A stretch of 4,903 nucleotides of DNA from a virus (taxonomy: Duplodnaviria; Heunggongvirae; Uroviricota; Caudoviricetes). The position numbers and the translations under genes are program-made. The notes beneath the pieces are model-generated. The model saw only the letters and a program-made list of their open reading frames with translations. It was not told the origin of the DNA and searched no databases. This document shows positions 1-4,903 of this stretch, piece after piece (positions within the stretch are counted from its first letter, which is position 1; each line of letters starts with the position of its first letter). The DNA lies in IMG/VR virus record IMGVR_UViG_2663762857_000011, positions 1-4,903 of that record, one strand, 5' to 3'.

Positions 1-144
1 ACCGGGTTCTCCTTTCCATTTTTGGCAAACAAAAACTCCTGTTAAATTGCCGTGCTGGTTAACAGATGTATGCCCTACGATGTAGCTTCCTTTAGTTGCT
101 TTCTCTGCCTTTTCACGCAGTGCCTGATAGTTAATTTGGGTCAC
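1..144 (-). CDS. Hypothetical protein, partial: N-terminal 48 codons, continues past the left edge of the window
   Basis: GTG at 144..142 overlaps the upstream TGA stop (GTGA). GGAGG lies 7 nt upstream. The frame is open for 48 codons to position 1 (VTQINYQALREKAEKATKGSYIVGHTSVNQHGNLTGVFVCQKWKGEPG). Absent from the ORF track, presumably because it is truncated. No homology recognised. Confidence 0.4.
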   Translation of the reverse strand, partial: MTQINYQALREKAEKATKGSYIVGHTSVNQHGNLTGVFVCQKWKGEPG

Positions 145-365
145 TCTTCATCCTCCAAGTCGGCAACGGCGTCCATCACATCAGAACCGCGAATAACCTC
201 AAAAGCACGGCAGGCCATTTGAAATACCAGTTGCTCTTGCGGATGCGGTGATTCCCAATATTTGAATCCAGGGCGATGCGCGTACCCCATCATTGAATAA
301 AAATCACCAGCAAGCTTAATCGCGGCATCAACAAGCTCTCTGTTAGTCATTCTTTTTCCGCTCAC
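141..365 (-). CDS. Small hypothetical protein with acidic C-terminus (about 75 aa from GTG; ORF track gives 85 aa from an upstream start at 398)
   Basis: ORF track 141..398. The preferred start is GTG at 365..363, preceded by AAGGAGG at 6 nt spacing and overlapping the upstream stop as GTGA. C-terminus ...VMDAVADLEDEE. Leftward early operon context. No recognised domain. Confidence 0.55.
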   Translation of the reverse strand: MSGKRMTNRELVDAAIKLAGDFYSMMGYAHRPGFKYWESPHPQEQLVFQMACRAFEVIRGSDVMDAVADLEDEE

Positions 366-973
366 TGGTTGCCTCCTTTGCGAATCTGTTCCGCCCATTC
401 TTCTAGGGATTTCTCCGCATATTCACCGGACAGGCCATCAATCGGGTGTGGTTCATTAGCCAACTCTTCTTTCGCTGACAGAATCATGCGTGTAACGTCG
501 AAAACTTCACGTAAAGACTTATTGATAAATCCGTGATTGAAAGCAGCAGCAAGACGGCTTGCGGTATAGTTAATCCCCTCGTTGCGTGCTTCCGCACGAA
601 TTTCAGCCAGGAAATCATCGGTGGCTGGAGTTTCGCTGTGGTGCAGGGCATCGTTGATAATCATTGCAGCAACACCAGCCTGCCCTGCATCCGTGACCGA
701 CACATGCTCAAGAGTTACGGCCATTGCGTGTTTCAGCCCCGCATTCTCCGCCGCCAGCGCCGAAAACTTCTCGTGTGCCAACTTAACAGCTGCATCAGCC
801 TGCTTAATTGACTCAATCGCTTTCTGTTGGTCTTCGGACAGAGCCAAAATCTTGGCCTCCGCTTCAGCAAATTTACGCACCAGATATTCAGCATTTGTTT
901 CATTCACTTTCAGATCTCGTGGTACACATTTCCCGCGAAGAAACCCTTCCATTTCGAAAACATTCATGCGCAT
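362..973 (-). CDS. Hypothetical Ala-rich, probably alpha-helical protein (203 aa), early-left operon
   Basis: ORF track 362..973. ATG at 973 has GGAG 8 nt upstream and overlaps the upstream gene end by 10 nt. An alternative ATG at 967 forms an ATGA overlap with the upstream stop. The stop overlaps the next start (GTGA). No family recognised from sequence alone. Confidence 0.7.
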   Translation of the reverse strand: MRMNVFEMEGFLRGKCVPRDLKVNETNAEYLVRKFAEAEAKILALSEDQQKAIESIKQADAAVKLAHEKFSALAAENAGLKHAMAVTLEHVSVTDAGQAGVAAMIINDALHHSETPATDDFLAEIRAEARNEGINYTASRLAAAFNHGFINKSLREVFDVTRMILSAKEELANEPHPIDGLSGEYAEKSLEEWAEQIRKGGNQ

Positions 974-1500
974 GTGCGTAACTCCGATAACTCGTTAAAG
1001 CGCTCCATAAACATCCCGTAGGCATGGCTCGGAGCCAGTGGAATAACTTTGAACATTTCTGTTGCCGGGATACCTTCCAGTACTGGCCAGAAAGAGCCAT
1101 CATCAAGCCCGAGATCGCGACGTTCGGTTGCCAGCATAATGAGATCGGCATATTTCACTGGCGTGCTCATAACAGGAGGTAACCCGTATTTCTCACGGAT
1201 TACGGCGTCTATTTTTTCTTCCATCCGTTTATAGTCAGGAAGAAGGCGTTTCAGTGGCGCGGGGATGTCCTGGCAATACGCTTCTGTTGCATCATGCATT
1301 AATGCTTCAAAAGCAAATTCCTGCGGTACCAGCTGGCTGCAAAGCACCGCATGTTGGGCGACGCTGTAGAAATGAGAAAGATGACCGGCAAAGCGGCAGA
1401 TATTTGAAAGGGAAACCGCGATATCGTTAATCACGATGTCGTCTTTATTTATCTTGTCATAATAAAAATGCTTCCCGGAAAAAGTTTTAATAAATGACAT
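964..1500 (-). CDS. yfdR: HD-domain phosphohydrolase, YfdR-like 5'-deoxynucleotidase (178 aa)
   Basis: Start trimmed from the ORF-track 964..1569 to ATG at 1500..1498 (MSFIKTF...), which has GGAG about 7 nt upstream. HD signature: H...H (RFAGHLSHFYSVAQHA) followed by ALMHDATEAYCQDIPAPLKR, resembling the YfbR/YfdR pattern recalled from memory. Length equals the 178 aa recalled for prophage YfdR. The symbol is a family-level assignment, not a verified ortholog. Confidence 0.75.
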   Translation of the reverse strand: MSFIKTFSGKHFYYDKINKDDIVINDIAVSLSNICRFAGHLSHFYSVAQHAVLCSQLVPQEFAFEALMHDATEAYCQDIPAPLKRLLPDYKRMEEKIDAVIREKYGLPPVMSTPVKYADLIMLATERRDLGLDDGSFWPVLEGIPATEMFKVIPLAPSHAYGMFMERFNELSELRTCA

Positions 1501-1541
1501 TTTGTTCTCCACGTTATATGCGCTGCACCGCTCTGAATTTT

Positions 1542-1592
1542 GATTGCAGCAATCCAGCCCATTTGACATGGGATGATTGCTGCAATTTTTTT
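1542..1592 (+). terminator. Terminator-like extended hairpin on the plus strand (12 bp perfect stem, inner 5 bp stem, then T-run), opposing the minus-strand operon
   Basis: attgcagcaatc (1543..1554) pairs with gattgctgcaat (1575..1586). The loop holds a nested palindrome cccat-ttgac-atggg. Six to seven T follow (1586..1592) on the plus strand only. Lies between the RdgC-like stop (1591..1593) and the HD gene start (1500). Confidence 0.45.
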
Positions 1593-2508
1593 AAGTTGTT
1601 GGATTTTGGCTTTTATCTTCTTTGTAAGAAAGAAGGTCACACATCAAATTAACTACCTTGCTGAATTGGAAAAGGTCAGCGCCAGTCTGATGACGCCACT
1701 GGAATGCTTTATCATCTTCATCATTAAATGTCTGAGATTGAGTATTGATGCGCGAAAAATGGAAATTTTCGGTAAGAATGAAGGTCACACCGCAACCGGA
1801 TAACTCCATTTTATCAGCAGTGAAACTACTACTAAGGCTATCGGCCAGTTCGCTTTGAATTGACTCATGCTCAGCTGAGTAGCGAATAATTTCCTTTTGA
1901 TCTGCGTAGCGTGATAGCTGAATATAATTTCCGACAGTGAATCCTTCAAATGCATTGGCTGCACCATTGATGTAGTTATTCAGGCGTGTAGTCAGTCCAT
2001 TCTTGATATCACTGATGTTGATTGTTTCTGTTTTCACTGAACCGACAACCTTAATCAGCATTGCGCATACCATACCGGCTATTATTTTATTGGTTGTGTT
2101 GATTACCAATAATTTCTCATCAGTGCTGTACAATGCAAGAATCAGCGTAGACTTAACAAATGCCTGTTTGCATAGATCTACTCGTACGTTATCAATAATG
2201 GTCAGTCGTTCGGCACGCTTTAATTTATTCCCGGACATATTTTCGATTGTTTGGATTCGAGAATTAGCTTCTTTCATGACGACATGTCGGGGAATTATTT
2301 TCTGATCATGACGGATTACCATTGCGTACCCACCAGATATCGGAGTTACCAGTTCACCAGTGACAGGATTCTCTACAAAAGAGGACCGTGAAAGTTCTGT
2401 TTCCCCGATTTCAGAATAAGGGAGTTCGAGAAGATGACCTTCAATAGCCTGTATACTAGGTAATGTTGCTCGGTACACAATTGCGTTACGAAATTTTGGT
2501 AATTTCAT
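1591..2508 (-). CDS. rdgC: RdgC-like recombination-associated protein (306 aa)
   Basis: Start trimmed from the ORF-track 1591..2658 to ATG at 2508..2506 (MKLPKFRNAIVYR...), preceded by GAGGA at 7 nt. The N-terminal motif FRNAIVYR resembles RdgC FKNLMVYR. Further blocks (GYAMVIRHDQKIIPRHVVMK; KLKRAERLTIIDNVRVDLCKQAF) align with E. coli RdgC as recalled from memory. The upstream in-frame extension is a TTG-initiated read-through of the structured leader with no RBS. Confidence 0.75.
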   Translation of the reverse strand: MKLPKFRNAIVYRATLPSIQAIEGHLLELPYSEIGETELSRSSFVENPVTGELVTPISGGYAMVIRHDQKIIPRHVVMKEANSRIQTIENMSGNKLKRAERLTIIDNVRVDLCKQAFVKSTLILALYSTDEKLLVINTTNKIIAGMVCAMLIKVVGSVKTETINISDIKNGLTTRLNNYINGAANAFEGFTVGNYIQLSRYADQKEIIRYSAEHESIQSELADSLSSSFTADKMELSGCGVTFILTENFHFSRINTQSQTFNDEDDKAFQWRHQTGADLFQFSKVVNLMCDLLSYKEDKSQNPTT

Positions 2509-3107
2509 TCTATTTTCCTCTGCACAAGATATTAGTTTCTCCACAAAACAGAGAAGAACACCTGCGGTGGCAGCCGCCCGGGTGGATTGGGTTATGAGCC
2601 CGTCGTCCGGTGATGCTCTTCTCTGTTTTGTAAAAAGAGCGGTACCAGCCGGAAGCAAGTGTACAAACTGGTACCGCCAAAGCAGTGGCTGCTGTGGTGA
2701 CCGATGCTGATCTCCGGCTTGCGGTTATTTCAGACTCTCACGGGCGTTTAATTGCCCCGCCGAACAGCTCTTTTCCGCAATAGCTGCAATGTCTTTCGTG
2801 CATCAGCCTGCGCATTCACCACAACGCTGAGAGCACTTAGCCAGTTACGGCACCACACTTTGTCGCGGTTCCATAAATGCCCTCATCGTTGCACCCTGGT
2901 CTCTTCCCAGGTGTCAAACCGAACCGCCACGCTGGTTAGGCGTCTTATCAGCATCCTCATTGACTTGCACATTCCGGCTACCTGGTTTGTTTGCCCGAGC
3001 AAGGAGTGGATTGTCCCCTTTAACGTCCCCAGACCGCTAACGACGCATGTGCCATACGCCGTGTTACAACCAAATTTTGTTTAATCTTGCCTGTGACATG
3101 TTTCTTT
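2509..3107 (-). other. Long (~590 nt) untranslated, GC-enriched, inverted-repeat-rich leader between the pL-like promoter and the first leftward gene; candidate structured RNA or regulatory element
   Basis: No minus-strand ORF of 60 aa or more. All three minus frames are interrupted by stops (one frame has stops at 3066, 3039, 2916, 2847, 2805 and 2727). Local GC is about 55-57% against roughly 40-45% in flanking genes (estimated by eye). Multiple hairpins, including the 18 bp inverted repeat at 2543..2631 and GGTACCAG/CTGGTACC at 2641..2675. Confidence 0.4.
2543..2631 (-). repeat. 18 bp inverted repeat flanking a 53 nt GC-rich loop (89 nt hairpin) just upstream of the RdgC-like RBS
   Basis: Plus acaaaacagagaagaaca (2543..2560) against tgctcttctctgttttgt (2614..2631). 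The single mismatch is A/C on the plus strand but a G.U wobble on the minus-strand RNA, so the stem is fully paired only in the leftward transcript. Confidence 0.6.
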
Positions 3108-3142
3108 TAGATACATTATGTATCTCAAGGGTACATTGTCAA
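3108..3142 (-). promoter_or_regulatory. pL-like early leftward promoter (-35 TTGACA, 16 nt spacer, -10 CATAAT)
   Basis: On the minus strand, TTGACA at 3142..3137 and CATAAT at 3120..3115. Sits immediately downstream of the cI terminator and upstream of the leader. The -10 is overlapped by the 17 bp palindrome. Confidence 0.5.
3109..3125. promoter_or_regulatory. Operator-like 17 bp perfect palindrome (agatacat-t-atgtatct) overlapping the -10 of the pL-like promoter (oL candidate)
   Basis: Perfect 8 bp arms around a single central base. The position overlapping a promoter -10 is typical of a repressor operator. Confidence 0.45.
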
Positions 3143-3146
3143 GTAT

Positions 3147-3169
3147 AAAAAAACCTGCCGAAGCAGGTT
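3147..3169 (-). terminator. Rho-independent terminator downstream of the repressor gene
   Basis: Minus-strand RNA: AACCUGC-UUCG-GCAGGUU followed by five or more U. That is a 7 bp stem with a UUCG tetraloop, starting 12 nt after the cI stop at 3181..3183. Confidence 0.7.
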
Positions 3170-3180
3170 ATAAATATTGA

Positions 3181-3855
3181 TTAGGCCTTTATTTTGTATC
3201 TTCTTGGTTTTCCTGAGAAAATTACTGTGCCAATTATAGAGCAATTACCGTTGATCTTAATGTAAGGTTCAGGCCAGTTTGGGTTTAATGCTTTGAGGTA
3301 ACGCTGTGTTCCATCTTCTATCAACCGCTTAAAGGTGGTTTCGCCTGTATCGTGCATCAATGCAATAACGTCGTCACCGTGGCAGGCAGGGACTTCAGGA
3401 TCTACAAAAATCATGTCTCCCGGGCGGTACTCATCAATCATTGAATCACCAATCACCCGCAAGATATAAGTCATTTCGCCACAGGGTACAGGGCAGGGAT
3501 AAGTTTCTGCTGTGCTCAAATCAACCTCAGAATAGCCAACTTCTTTCCATGCTCCGGCCTGTACCCATGATATGACAGGGACTAACGTTATTTGTTTGTT
3601 AGTAATTGAAACATCAGGTTTTTTTGTGATGTTTGTTGTCTGGTGTTCTTGATCAAGCCATCCGACAGGCAGGTCGAAACATTTTTCGATGTGCCGTGCC
3701 ATGCTGTCACCGATATTTTTAGTAGCACCATCTCCCATAAACCTGCTGGTCTGGGTTGGCTCGCGATCAATCATGGTGGCAAAGGAAGAATTCCCGCCAA
3801 CACCATCTCTCAGTTTTCTGGCGTTAGACCGCCGGATGTCATGGACTGTTTTCAT
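3181..3855 (-). CDS. Prophage repressor, CI/LexA family (N-terminal HTH plus C-terminal S24 autopeptidase), 224 aa
   Basis: ORF track 3181..3855. The C-terminal domain has the S24 signature: GDSM with Ser138, FKRL with Lys176 (38 residues apart), and a candidate Ala100-Gly101 autocleavage site (VQAGAW). The N-terminal 70 aa is HTH-like. Divergent from the Cro-like gene and followed by a terminator. Confidence 0.9.
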   Translation of the reverse strand: MKTVHDIRRSNARKLRDGVGGNSSFATMIDREPTQTSRFMGDGATKNIGDSMARHIEKCFDLPVGWLDQEHQTTNITKKPDVSITNKQITLVPVISWVQAGAWKEVGYSEVDLSTAETYPCPVPCGEMTYILRVIGDSMIDEYRPGDMIFVDPEVPACHGDDVIALMHDTGETTFKRLIEDGTQRYLKALNPNWPEPYIKINGNCSIIGTVIFSGKPRRYKIKA

Positions 3856-3871
3856 AACGAAATTAAAACCT

Positions 3872-3890
3872 TTGTACCGATAGGGTACAA
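3872..3890. promoter_or_regulatory. Operator-like 19 bp perfect palindrome TTGTACC-gatag-GGTACAA in the cI/cro intergenic region (oR candidate)
   Basis: Perfect 7 bp arms with a 5 bp spacer. Located 17 bp from the cI start codon and about 55 bp upstream of the cro start. GTAC-containing half-site-like motifs recur at 3934..3948 and 3131..3136. Confidence 0.45.
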
Positions 3891-3945
3891 GTATCTTTAA
3901 GGTTCATCTCAATCATGTAGTATGTATATTGGAGGTACATATTGT

Positions 3946-4146
3946 ATGAAAGCGTATTGGGACTCTTTAACCAAAGAACAGCAGGGCGAGTTGGCCGGAA
4001 AAGTTGGCTCAACACCAGGCTACTTACGGCTGGTTTTCAATGGTTATAAAAAAGCCAGTTTTGTGCTGGCTAAAAAACTTGAGCAATGCACGTCAGGTGC
4101 AATTACGAAATCTGACTTAAGACCGGATATCTATCCGAAAGATTAA
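3946..4146 (+). CDS. Cro-like small HTH regulator (YdaS/Cro family), 66 aa
   Basis: Start trimmed from the ORF-track 3922..4146 to ATG at 3946, which has GGAGG at 3931..3935. The upstream ATG at 3922 has no RBS and would translate the SD itself. The C-terminal motif ...SGAITKSDLRPDIY resembles the YdaS-type Cro pattern (...G.V....LRPD). Divergent from the repressor. Confidence 0.75.
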   Translation: MKAYWDSLTKEQQGELAGKVGSTPGYLRLVFNGYKKASFVLAKKLEQCTSGAITKSDLRPDIYPKD

Positions 4147-4177
4147 CAGAACACCTTCAATTTTTAACCACAGAACG

Positions 4178-4747
4178 ATGAGGCTAACCGTGGGTAAGCA
4201 TCACTGGAAAGTAGAAAAACAGCCTGAGTGGTACGTGAAAGCTGTCAGAAAAACTATCGCGGCGTTGCCGGGGGGTTACGCTGAAGCTGCTGAGTGGCTG
4301 GATGTAACAGAGAACGCTTTATTCAATCGCCTTCGTGCCGATGGCGATCAGATTTTCCCGCTGGGATGGGCAATGATTTTACAACGTGCTGGTGGAACTC
4401 ACTTCATTGCTGACGCTGTGGCGCAGTCTGCAAATGGCGTCTTTGTGTCTCTTCCTGACGTCGAGGATGTGGACAACGCCGATATTAACCAGCGTCTGCT
4501 GGAAGTCATCGAACAGATCGGGAGTTACTCAAAGCAGATTCGTTCGGCAATCGAAGATGGGGTAGTGGAACCGCATGAGAAAACAGCAATTAACGACGAA
4601 CTGTATCTTTCAATTTCGAAGCTCCAGGAGCATGCAGCACTGGTCTACAAAATCTTCTGCGCTCCAGAAAAGAGTAACGCCCGCGAGTGTGCAGCTCCGG
4701 GCGTCGTGGCGTCGATTGCTTCTGGTTGTGGAGAAACTAACGCATGA
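4178..4747 (+). CDS. CII-like / YdaT-family early regulatory protein (189 aa; possible GTG start at 4190 giving 185 aa)
   Basis: ORF track 4178..4747. Sits directly after cro, the position that CII or YdaT occupies in lambdoid prophages. GAGG lies 6 nt before the in-frame GTG at 4190, whereas no clear SD precedes ATG 4178. The family assignment is by position and general resemblance only. Confidence 0.6.
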   Translation: MRLTVGKHHWKVEKQPEWYVKAVRKTIAALPGGYAEAAEWLDVTENALFNRLRADGDQIFPLGWAMILQRAGGTHFIADAVAQSANGVFVSLPDVEDVDNADINQRLLEVIEQIGSYSKQIRSAIEDGVVEPHEKTAINDELYLSISKLQEHAALVYKIFCAPEKSNARECAAPGVVASIASGCGETNA

Positions 4748-4903
4748 ATAGTTTAACGGCAAATAACCGTTTGCATATTGATTCTGCAATTCCGGGACGT
4801 TACACTGCTCAGGCACCTTATAAAGCGGGGGCCGGGCGTGGAAACCCGAAATTCAATATAGAGCACAACCGCGCTCATGCGGTTTTTTCGTGTCATGAGC
4901 ATC
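4744..4903 (+). CDS. Hypothetical protein, partial: N-terminal 53 codons, continues past the right edge; occupies the position of a replication or early gene
   Basis: ATG at 4744 overlaps the upstream TGA (ATGA). GGAG lies about 10 nt upstream. The frame is open to the window end (MNSLTANNRLHIDSAIPGRYTAQAPYKAGAGRGNPKFNIEHNRAHAVFSCHEH). No family recognised. Confidence 0.4.
   Translation, partial: MNSLTANNRLHIDSAIPGRYTAQAPYKAGAGRGNPKFNIEHNRAHAVFSCHEH

Follow-up and report, generated by a model that had tools for sequence, protein, structure and literature searches.

Introduction

PasD1, PasD2 and STnc100 are small RNAs (sRNAs) encoded by prophages of Salmonella and pathogenic Escherichia coli; STnc100 has been detected experimentally as an RNA (PMC12370729), PasD is Hfq-dependent and has targets found by RIL-seq, in which interacting RNAs are ligated and then sequenced (PMC8550237), and a 2026 preprint from the Storz laboratory presents STnc100 and PasD as related prophage sRNAs (bioRxiv 10.64898/2026.05.13.724894). 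Another described system is the put RNA of phage HK022, which is about 70 nucleotides (nt) long, forms two stems and starts at +3 (PMC9378689). Here, I discuss the leader of about 600 nt at positions 2509-3107, minus strand, of a 4,903-nt stretch of viral DNA (IMG/VR record IMGVR_UViG_2663762857_000011, positions 1 to 4,903; "the window" from here on), which is the immunity region of a lambdoid prophage of the SfV/cdtI/mEp460/Stx2c type. An initial annotation of this DNA treated the leader as one entity and offered three explanations, namely a cis-acting antiterminator in the manner of HK022 put, a processed or stable non-coding RNA, and a decayed or foreign insert; what it had missed is that the stretch consists of several independent and widely distributed RNA modules. 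I judge it reasonably probable that the leader is a cluster of structured, horizontally mobile non-coding RNAs transcribed from pL, and neither a decayed gene nor a put site. Among the three explanations the second is the best supported, with a covarying structured RNA, a linker and an intrinsic terminator laid out as in STnc100 and PasD.

A mosaic leader without a long leftward reading frame

Everything in the initial description stands. A strong pL-like sigma-70 promoter (TTGACA-16-CATAAT at 3142..3115, matching the consensus at 11 of 12 positions; descending coordinates denote the minus strand throughout) lies about 600 nt upstream of the first leftward gene, which begins with the ATG at 2508, and transcription would start near 3108. 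The longest minus-strand open reading frames (ORFs) within 2509-3107 are 56, 39 and 36 amino acids, none reaching 60 and none N-like; the G+C content is 0.50-0.55 over 2501-3100, versus 0.36-0.44 in the neighbouring gene on the left and 0.33-0.39 near 3001-3300; the inverted repeats that had been named (an 89-nt hairpin, the GCGGTACCAG/CTGGTACCGC hairpin and CCTGG-N7-CCAGG) are all real; and the minus-strand leader folds as a whole with a z-score of -3.05. The 31-nt spacer between cro and the CII-like gene likewise holds no terminator or hairpin element.

By megablast, the block 2532-3081 matches mEp460, PhiR63_1 and others at 97-99% identity, and sensitive blastn resolves it into pieces with different relatives: 2532-2679 matches SfV, SfII and SfIV, 2690-2838 the T1-like Klebsiella phage IME207 and the P1-like phage JL22 (94-95%), 2819-3062 the phiV10/epsilon15-like phages (82%) and 2898-3075 phages P1 and P7 (78-80%), and in all those phages the blastn-matched pieces adjoin transfer RNA (tRNA) genes on the same strand. 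The insert is, then, foreign in the mosaic sense, its modules recurring in phage P1 and in T1-like, epsilon15-like and other lambdoid phages; that it is decayed finds no support. At least 80% of the leader is present in 462 of 5426 complete E. coli genomes, and part of it in 2689 (about half), in the sampled records without an RNA annotation; the matches of all lengths in these genomes are mostly 95-99% identical.

The R1 element

The element that I call R1 (2825..2691) is a real and widespread structured RNA. In the window it is built of a closing stem, P1, of 7 base pairs (bp; 2825-2819 with 2697-2691), the sequence UGAAU, a 5' hairpin (2813-2798) with the loop GCUGAU (2807-2802), a variable insert of 79 nt, and a 3' hairpin (2718-2700) with the loop AUCAGC (2711-2706) that is followed by CA. 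The consensus reads P1 stem (5-8 bp or longer), UGAAU, GCRC[AGGCUGAU]GYGC, insert, AA, GCCGG[AGAUCAGCA]CCGGC, CA and P1', the second arm of the stem. The R1 18-mer TGAATGCRCAGGCTGATG has more than 120 exact matches in IMG/VR; up to 120 loci were sampled from each motif scan, and counts of copies refer to the matches listed. Among these are 97 unique R1 copies with 72 different, unrelated inserts of about 30-170 nt, one of them (at locus L113) holding an entire tRNA, and an alignment of the pieces displays conserved 5' and 3' parts around this variable middle.

Covariation supports the fold, in P1 and in both hairpins. Across 57 diverse copies, 97% of the cells are paired and 12 pairs have changed on both sides, with compensatory changes at 7 of 7 P1 pairs and 4 of 5 pairs of the 3' hairpin, and none of 500 shuffles reaches the observed pairing values. 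The 100% figure for P1 is inflated, its arms having been delimited by extending the pairing; at a fixed register, at least 4 contiguous pairs are found in 94 of the 97 copies. With a covariance model built for R1, the window copy reaches 82.1 bits (E 3.7e-25, over model positions 1-126), this sequence having been in the training alignment, and the mEp460-type, JL22 and IME207 copies reach 93-94 bits. The two loops are complementary over 6 nt and invariant in the sample, and on this complementarity a loop-loop contact may form. In architectural matches with non-canonical loops, the loops are no more complementary than re-paired controls (3.16 vs 2.97).

The reach of R1 is not limited to lambdoid prophages. 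In species-representative genomes, full copies with scores of more than 50 bits are present at 66 of 100 loci, the majority of them in alpha-, beta- and gamma-Proteobacteria and, by host, mostly in Enterobacterales, Pseudomonas, Burkholderiales, Xanthomonadales and Alphaproteobacteria; the remaining loci are chance matches to the 18-mer, of which about 35 are expected in 596 Gb. Context was counted over 162 non-redundant copies. A tRNA gene lies within 500 nt on the same strand of 25 copies and on the opposite strand of none, and because the neighbouring tRNAs are same-strand only and no opposite-strand frame is conserved (see below), R1 is taken as an RNA of the leftward strand here. An intrinsic terminator lies within 80 nt of 41 copies, versus 5% of controls, with a median of 193 nt from the start of P1 to the T-run. 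In a sub-family with a long P1 extension a gene begins 24-29 nt after the element, and at least 4 of the products match Pfam N_peptide; other copies are followed by a terminator and then by holin genes. The contexts of R1 are thus early-left N leaders, late-operon leaders, tRNA arrays and, in the window, a pL leader without N.

Several other ideas about R1 were tried and rejected. A hammerhead or other ribozyme does not fit, in that CUGAUG lies in a loop, GAAA is not conserved and no Rfam ribozyme matches the window. A promoter of its own starting at P1 is not supported by enrichment of the -10 box (7/162 vs 23/810). A second copy in the window had been suspected at AAUGAGGAUGCUGAUAAG (2961..2944), which belongs to module C, described below, and the R1 model finds one copy only. 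Separately, an exact 12-nt copy of the R1 loop region, GCAGGCUGAUGC, occurs at 792-803 (minus strand) inside a 203-aa (amino acid) ORF at 362-973, a fragment scoring 11.9 bits (E 0.008) that is probably there by chance. At locus L204 (Halomonas olivaria TYRC17, 1065-1165), the R1 core 18-mer sits inside an apparent spacer of a clustered regularly interspaced short palindromic repeat (CRISPR) array, flanked by repeats GTTCCCCGCAGGCGCGGGGATGAACCG, which suggests a host spacer aimed at the R1 of a Halomonas phage.

The terminator and the 89-nt hairpin

About 12 nt beyond R1, the GGTACCAG hairpin is directly followed by UCUUUUU and is therefore an intrinsic terminator, a point that had escaped the initial annotation. 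It spans 2678..2629 with a 13-bp stem (2678-2666 with 2650-2638), a 15-nt loop and the U-tract UCUUUUUAC (-21.2 kcal/mol, z = -4.4), and CGCUCUUU at 2641..2634 is its shoulder; a consensus terminator scan missed it because the loop exceeds the 8-nt limit of the scanner. The terminator is identical in the window, mEp460, cdtI and SfV except at 3 positions in SfV, and the Rfam STnc100 model aligns its own terminator to the homologous SfV hairpin. By its sequence it is strong, it is conserved, and it is predicted to be efficient.

Immediately beyond it follows the 89-nt hairpin (2632..2542), which has a 21-bp stem and a three-way interior (-45.5 kcal/mol, z = -6.0), and which is joined to the terminator in front of it in the 12 most frequent of the 32 upstream-context variants listed (72 unique contexts). 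Both are nearly invariant, and the few substitutions in the stem keep its pairing. The interior contains GGG-CUCAUAA-CCC at 2601..2589, with three G-C pairs and a CAU anticodon, which we take to resemble the anticodon stem-loop of the initiator tRNA-Met (tRNA-fMet). Neither ARAGORN nor Rfam (RF00005) calls a tRNA in the window or in this hairpin; true tRNAs are found beside homologous modules in other phages. One could speculate that the loop is a decoy for VapC-type nucleases, which cleave initiator tRNA, or else a remnant of a tRNA-Met; it may also be a regulatory structure.

Module C and the P0 hairpin

The promoter-proximal part of the leader is a second structured RNA, module C (3075..2893), which includes the hairpin H1 (3062..3040), an invariant 19-mer, GGUAGCCGGAAUGUGCAAG (also written GGTAGCCGGAATGTGCAAG; 2982..2964), and the hairpin CCUGG-GAAGAGA-CCAGG (2911..2895). 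Exact matches to the 19-mer number more than 120 in IMG/VR and fall into 37 sequence clusters. The initial annotation had pointed to covariation as the way of judging the helices of the leader, and compensatory changes are found here as in R1: the RNAalifold consensus has 27 pairs, with 98% of cells paired and 9 pairs changed on both sides; H1 switches from A-U to G-C among homologues, by inspection; and the hairpin with the GAAGAGA loop appears as CCUGG/CCAGG, CCUCG/CGAGG and CCGG/CCGG. Opposite-strand frames anchored on the 19-mer are each stop-free in only 10-13 of 36 homologues, that is, no reading frame is conserved.

Module C homologues lie between trnI and ban in phage P1 and upstream of tRNA-Arg in phiV10-like phages, and the 129 loci surveyed are followed by R1 in 29 cases and by a tRNA in 24, at nearly the same distance from the 19-mer (R1 core about 164 nt, with its P1 stem at about 157 nt; tRNA about 165 nt). 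Between module C and R1 in the window lies the P0 hairpin (2891..2822, -30.8 kcal/mol, z = -4.2), whose 3' arm AGUGCUCUCAGCGUUG bears a weak likeness to boxA and shares 4 nt with the 5' arm of the stem that closes R1; in other phages the same stem encloses a different interior. Rfam scans of the window and 14 related loci assigned neither canonical R1 nor module C to a family, and related matches were limited to sub-threshold hits of STnc100 on the variants in SfV and phage P1, and a full-text literature search with the core sequences found no paper. Module C is, in other words, a second widespread RNA family that has no Rfam entry and that our literature searches met in no paper.

Two side observations belong here. 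SfV (locus L009) has, at 3064-3360 on the minus strand, the 98-aa ORF orf33 (no Pfam family) and an annotated terminator where the window has module C. At locus L297, a sub-threshold hammerhead type I match at 384-430 on the plus strand (28.7 bits, threshold 34; CUGAAGAG...CGAAAC) lies in a hairpin of the P0 type, some 100 nt downstream from a copy of module C, and a ribozyme may be yet another cargo in the slot after module C.

Exchange of cassettes

The junction downstream of P0 is where related phages differ. Between identical flanks, which are P0, both arms of P1, the terminator and the 89-nt hairpin, three interiors occur: canonical R1 in the window and mEp460, an unrelated sequence in cdtI and Ayreon, and an STnc100-like variant in SfV. 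In phiV10-like phages, what follows the same upstream leader is tRNA-Arg, the 5' end of the tRNA lying within GUUGUGG, which is the 5' arm of the P1 stem here. In the manner of cassettes, such RNAs are exchanged into the slots of tRNA genes, N-gene leaders and late-operon leaders. As for the alternative interior itself, in cdtI and Ayreon (L003 and L001) positions 3161-3273, corresponding to 2825..2691 of the window, hold about 100 nt of structured sequence (UAAUCCGCGAAAUGGCGCGG...) that scores 10 bits with the R1 model and may be a further RNA family. The C1-controlled ban operon of phage P1 (L005) contains two R1-type elements and a module C homologue (2501-2685, 3495-3616 and 3778-3877) interleaved with its three tRNA genes, and the opposite-strand plp ORF overlaps the copy at 3778-3877.

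Weighing the readings

Under the favoured reading of a pL-driven RNA cluster, a transcript from about 3108 would comprise module C, the P0 hairpin and then a unit of about 197 nt, 2825..2629, made up of the R1 domain, the linker and the terminator. This unit would be an early-expressed sRNA, possibly released by processing and, by analogy with PasD, Hfq-dependent, with a pairing region in the linker or in the variable insert. The terminator would at the same time gate the early-left operon that begins with rdgC, so that most pL transcripts would end near 2630 as an RNA of about 475 nt, and the tRNA-like hairpin of 89 nt and the early-left genes would be present only on transcripts that had read through.

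A number of points weigh against this reading. The expression of the unit and its 3' end at this locus are predictions from sequence, and an efficient terminator would demand a mechanism of read-through, of which none was found. R1 also occurs inside messenger RNA leaders directly upstream of N genes, where it has no terminator, and so it is not always a stand-alone sRNA. Furthermore, the window copy is slightly weaker than the consensus, its 5' hairpin having one C-A mismatch and its 3' hairpin two G-U pairs, the pairing of the loops is invariant and to that extent lacks support from covariation, and the Rfam STnc100 model finds no copy in the window at E <= 1.

The alternative that survives best, unlikely as I consider it, is that some part of the leader acts in cis as an antiterminator and overcomes the terminator and Rho without N, as a functional analogue of HK022 put or of the ribosomal RNA (rrn) boxA system; the candidates are module C, which is the more plausible, and the boxA-like sequence of P0. 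Module C is promoter-proximal in the window and has a promoter-like site upstream in 35 of 129 copies (27%), versus 14 of 387 controls (3.6%), and in every case untranslated cargo (tRNA or R1) and a terminator lie downstream of it on the same strand. The phage lacks N and yet has a terminator, and put-like antitermination has been suggested by Casjens and colleagues for the N-less phage LLS, with CI and Cro closest to mEp460_4F5 (PMC12315714). In addition, 29 of 162 R1 copies have a strict boxA in the 30 nt upstream of them, versus 1 of 486 controls, these sequences largely coinciding with the conserved 3' arm of P0, and the exact rrn boxA UGCUCUUUAACAA is present at a few module C loci. However, the boxA-like motif of the window is degenerate (UGCUCUCAG), boxA as a general feature after module C is not enriched (8/109 vs 20/545), and the module C of phage P1 lies between trnI and ban and not beside an annotated promoter.

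The comparison with put itself, which the initial annotation had named among its candidates, gave no support in sequence-based tests of similarity, second copy and architecture. What is shared is a non-coding RNA after the early promoter of an N-less lambdoid phage with a terminator ahead. The put RNA suppresses termination in cis, by way of the zinc-binding domain of the RNA polymerase beta' subunit. Comparing the leader with positions 24.0-37.5 kb of HK022 by blastn-short returned chance matches of 15-16 nt only (E >= 0.86), putL and putR not being located in that sparsely annotated record. Unlike the two-stem put RNA, the modules here are multi-helix and 135-185 nt long, and the first conserved helix begins about 45 nt after the probable transcription start, these first 45 nt or so being A-rich. 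Nor is there, within the window, a second copy on the rightward, pR side, where the cro-CII spacer holds no element.

A related proposal, which I hold to be rather improbable, is that module C represents a new class of promoter-proximal cis-acting RNA that modifies the polymerase for escape from Rho and for read-through of the sRNA terminator, a put analogue with an unrelated fold, and that the R1 core is a tRNA-shaped module for protein binding or processing. If this were true, module C would free from Rho both the early-left operon of lambdoid phages without N and untranslated arrays of tRNAs and R1 sRNAs, and sRNAs, N leaders and tRNA arrays across Proteobacterial phages would have the R1 core in common. 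The question of how N-less phages of the SfV/cdtI/mEp460 type pass their early terminators is sharpened, now that there is a defined terminator (2678..2629) and two candidate RNAs.

It is quite doubtful that the leader is recombinational debris, i.e., remnants of phage tRNA and sRNA regions stranded at a mosaic junction and functionless in this phage. Such an origin would fit the patchwork of pieces matching different phages, the different interiors of cdtI and SfV between the same flanks, the weakened R1 pairs of the window and the tRNA-Met-like fragment in the 89-nt hairpin that no tool calls a tRNA; however, the helices of the modules are kept by compensatory changes across distant phages, the block is at least 80% complete in the 462 E. 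coli genomes counted above, the terminator and 89-nt hairpin have hardly varied, and the promoter, terminator and Shine-Dalgarno sequence are all intact. Finally, a protein from the plus strand is very improbable: a 110-aa ORF does exist at 2752..3084 on that strand and is annotated as hypothetical in mEp460 and cdtI, but the annotated ORFs differ between records, this one (the sole short leader ORF scanned against Pfam) starts with TTG and matches no Pfam family, it would be read against pL transcription, its strand has no conserved frame by the stop counts given for module C, and the pattern of conservation is that of RNA helices.

Flanking genes

The leader is set among the genes of the immunity region. 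The first leftward gene is of the RdgC family (1591..2508; Pfam PF04381, E 5e-31), and since the Pfam match begins at residue 6, the ATG at 2508 is supported as its start codon, with the caveat that the frame stays open for about 150 nt upstream, back to a TTG at 2658; beside it, in the left part of the window, is a gene for a YfbR-like HD phosphohydrolase. On the other side lie a Peptidase_S24 repressor gene, cI (3181-3855, minus strand, by domain match), with its intrinsic terminator (3169..3152, a 7-bp stem and then TTTTTAT) directly upstream of pL, a gene for a Cro-like helix-turn-helix protein (3946-4146, plus strand) and one for a CII (Phage_CP76) protein (4178-4747, plus strand). An operator-like inverted repeat at 3098-3136 overlaps the pL-like promoter.

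Downstream of the CII-like gene lies an antisense RNA of the isrK/c4 type (4813-4889, plus strand), which reaches 57.7 bits with Rfam RF01394 and so exceeds the threshold. Its span coincides in part with a weak match to the c4-a1b1 target at 4800-4852. In relatives an antirepressor gene comes next, such as orf44 of cdtI, presumably under the control of this RNA. A long palindrome (TTGCAGCAATC...GATTGCTGCAA) at 1536-1590, between the HD-phosphohydrolase and rdgC genes, is bordered by an A-run at one end and by a T-run at the other, and looks like a terminator for rightward (plus-strand) transcription and a weak one for the leftward operon.

Comparison with known systems

Lambda-type N and nut elements have no counterpart in the window, in which there is no N gene and no boxB, and boxA is represented only by the degenerate motif already mentioned. 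Motif and R1-model searches of the HK022, lambda and P22 regions found neither R1 nor module C, so lambda and P22 are both without the R1 core. R1 with the long P1 extension does, however, lie 24-29 nt upstream of N-family genes in other phages, a position which in lambda, where the N leader runs from nutL through a hairpin processed by RNase III to N, is occupied by that large hairpin. The initial annotation had reasoned that an N-like gene at this position in homologous prophages would mark the leader as a decayed ORF; such genes do exist just after R1 elsewhere, but the RNA is intact here and no gene remnant is visible. In lambda itself (L131, 2470-2510, minus strand), the 5' flank GGCUUUGGGGUGUGUG of the N-leader hairpin closely resembles the flank and P1 arm of the R1 copy at locus L040 (GGCUUUGGGGUGUGGUGAAUGCGC...), which is upstream of an N-like gene, and lambda appears to keep the basal stem with a different interior.

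The likeness to tRNA is one of both position and shape. Behind module C and P0, the junction takes R1 or a tRNA gene as alternative cargo, and R1 is a cloverleaf-like four-way junction, with its 7-bp closing stem, a 4-bp hairpin with an 8-nt loop, and a 5-bp hairpin with a loop able to pair with the first one. It differs from a tRNA in having 5 nt and not 2 after the closing stem, 2 nt before the 3' arm, no T-loop sequence and no CCA. The anti-sRNAs AgvB and AsxR were also considered as relatives and rejected, since those are 51-60 nt long and lie 3' of pR'.

The closest system is that of STnc100 and PasD. STnc100 (RF02076), its closing stem read one pair shorter for this purpose than in the Rfam structure line, has the same parts in the same order, i.e., closing stem, UGAAU, 5' hairpin, variable hairpins, GC-rich 3' hairpin, CA, 3' arm of the stem, linker and terminator, and PasD1 begins exactly at GCAUGGUGAAU, closes with CGCCAUGC and has its seed in the linker before its terminator. 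Both these sRNAs and the R1 unit measure about 170-200 nt in total, both they and the window unit are on lambdoid prophages, and some R1 copies lie, as PasD does, between a terminator and holin genes. The bridge is the SfV allele of the locus, which scores 39.5 bits with the STnc100 model, followed by L274 at 38.4 and the third copy of phage P1 at 33.4, all of them below the 47-bit gathering threshold; PasD1 reaches only 11.6 bits with the R1 model. In contrast to STnc100 and PasD, the R1 core has the loops GCUGAU and AUCAGC, it is far wider in distribution, being found across Proteobacteria and also in virulent T1-like phages and phage P1, and the window copy is in a CI-repressed pL leader whereas STnc100 and PasD belong to the late region. 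Judged by this architecture and by the SfV allele, the unit 2825..2629 would be an sRNA gene of the STnc100/PasD type with a different and far more widespread core, and STnc100 and PasD would thereby be linked to a much larger, Proteobacteria-wide family with a conserved four-way-junction core and a hypervariable insert.

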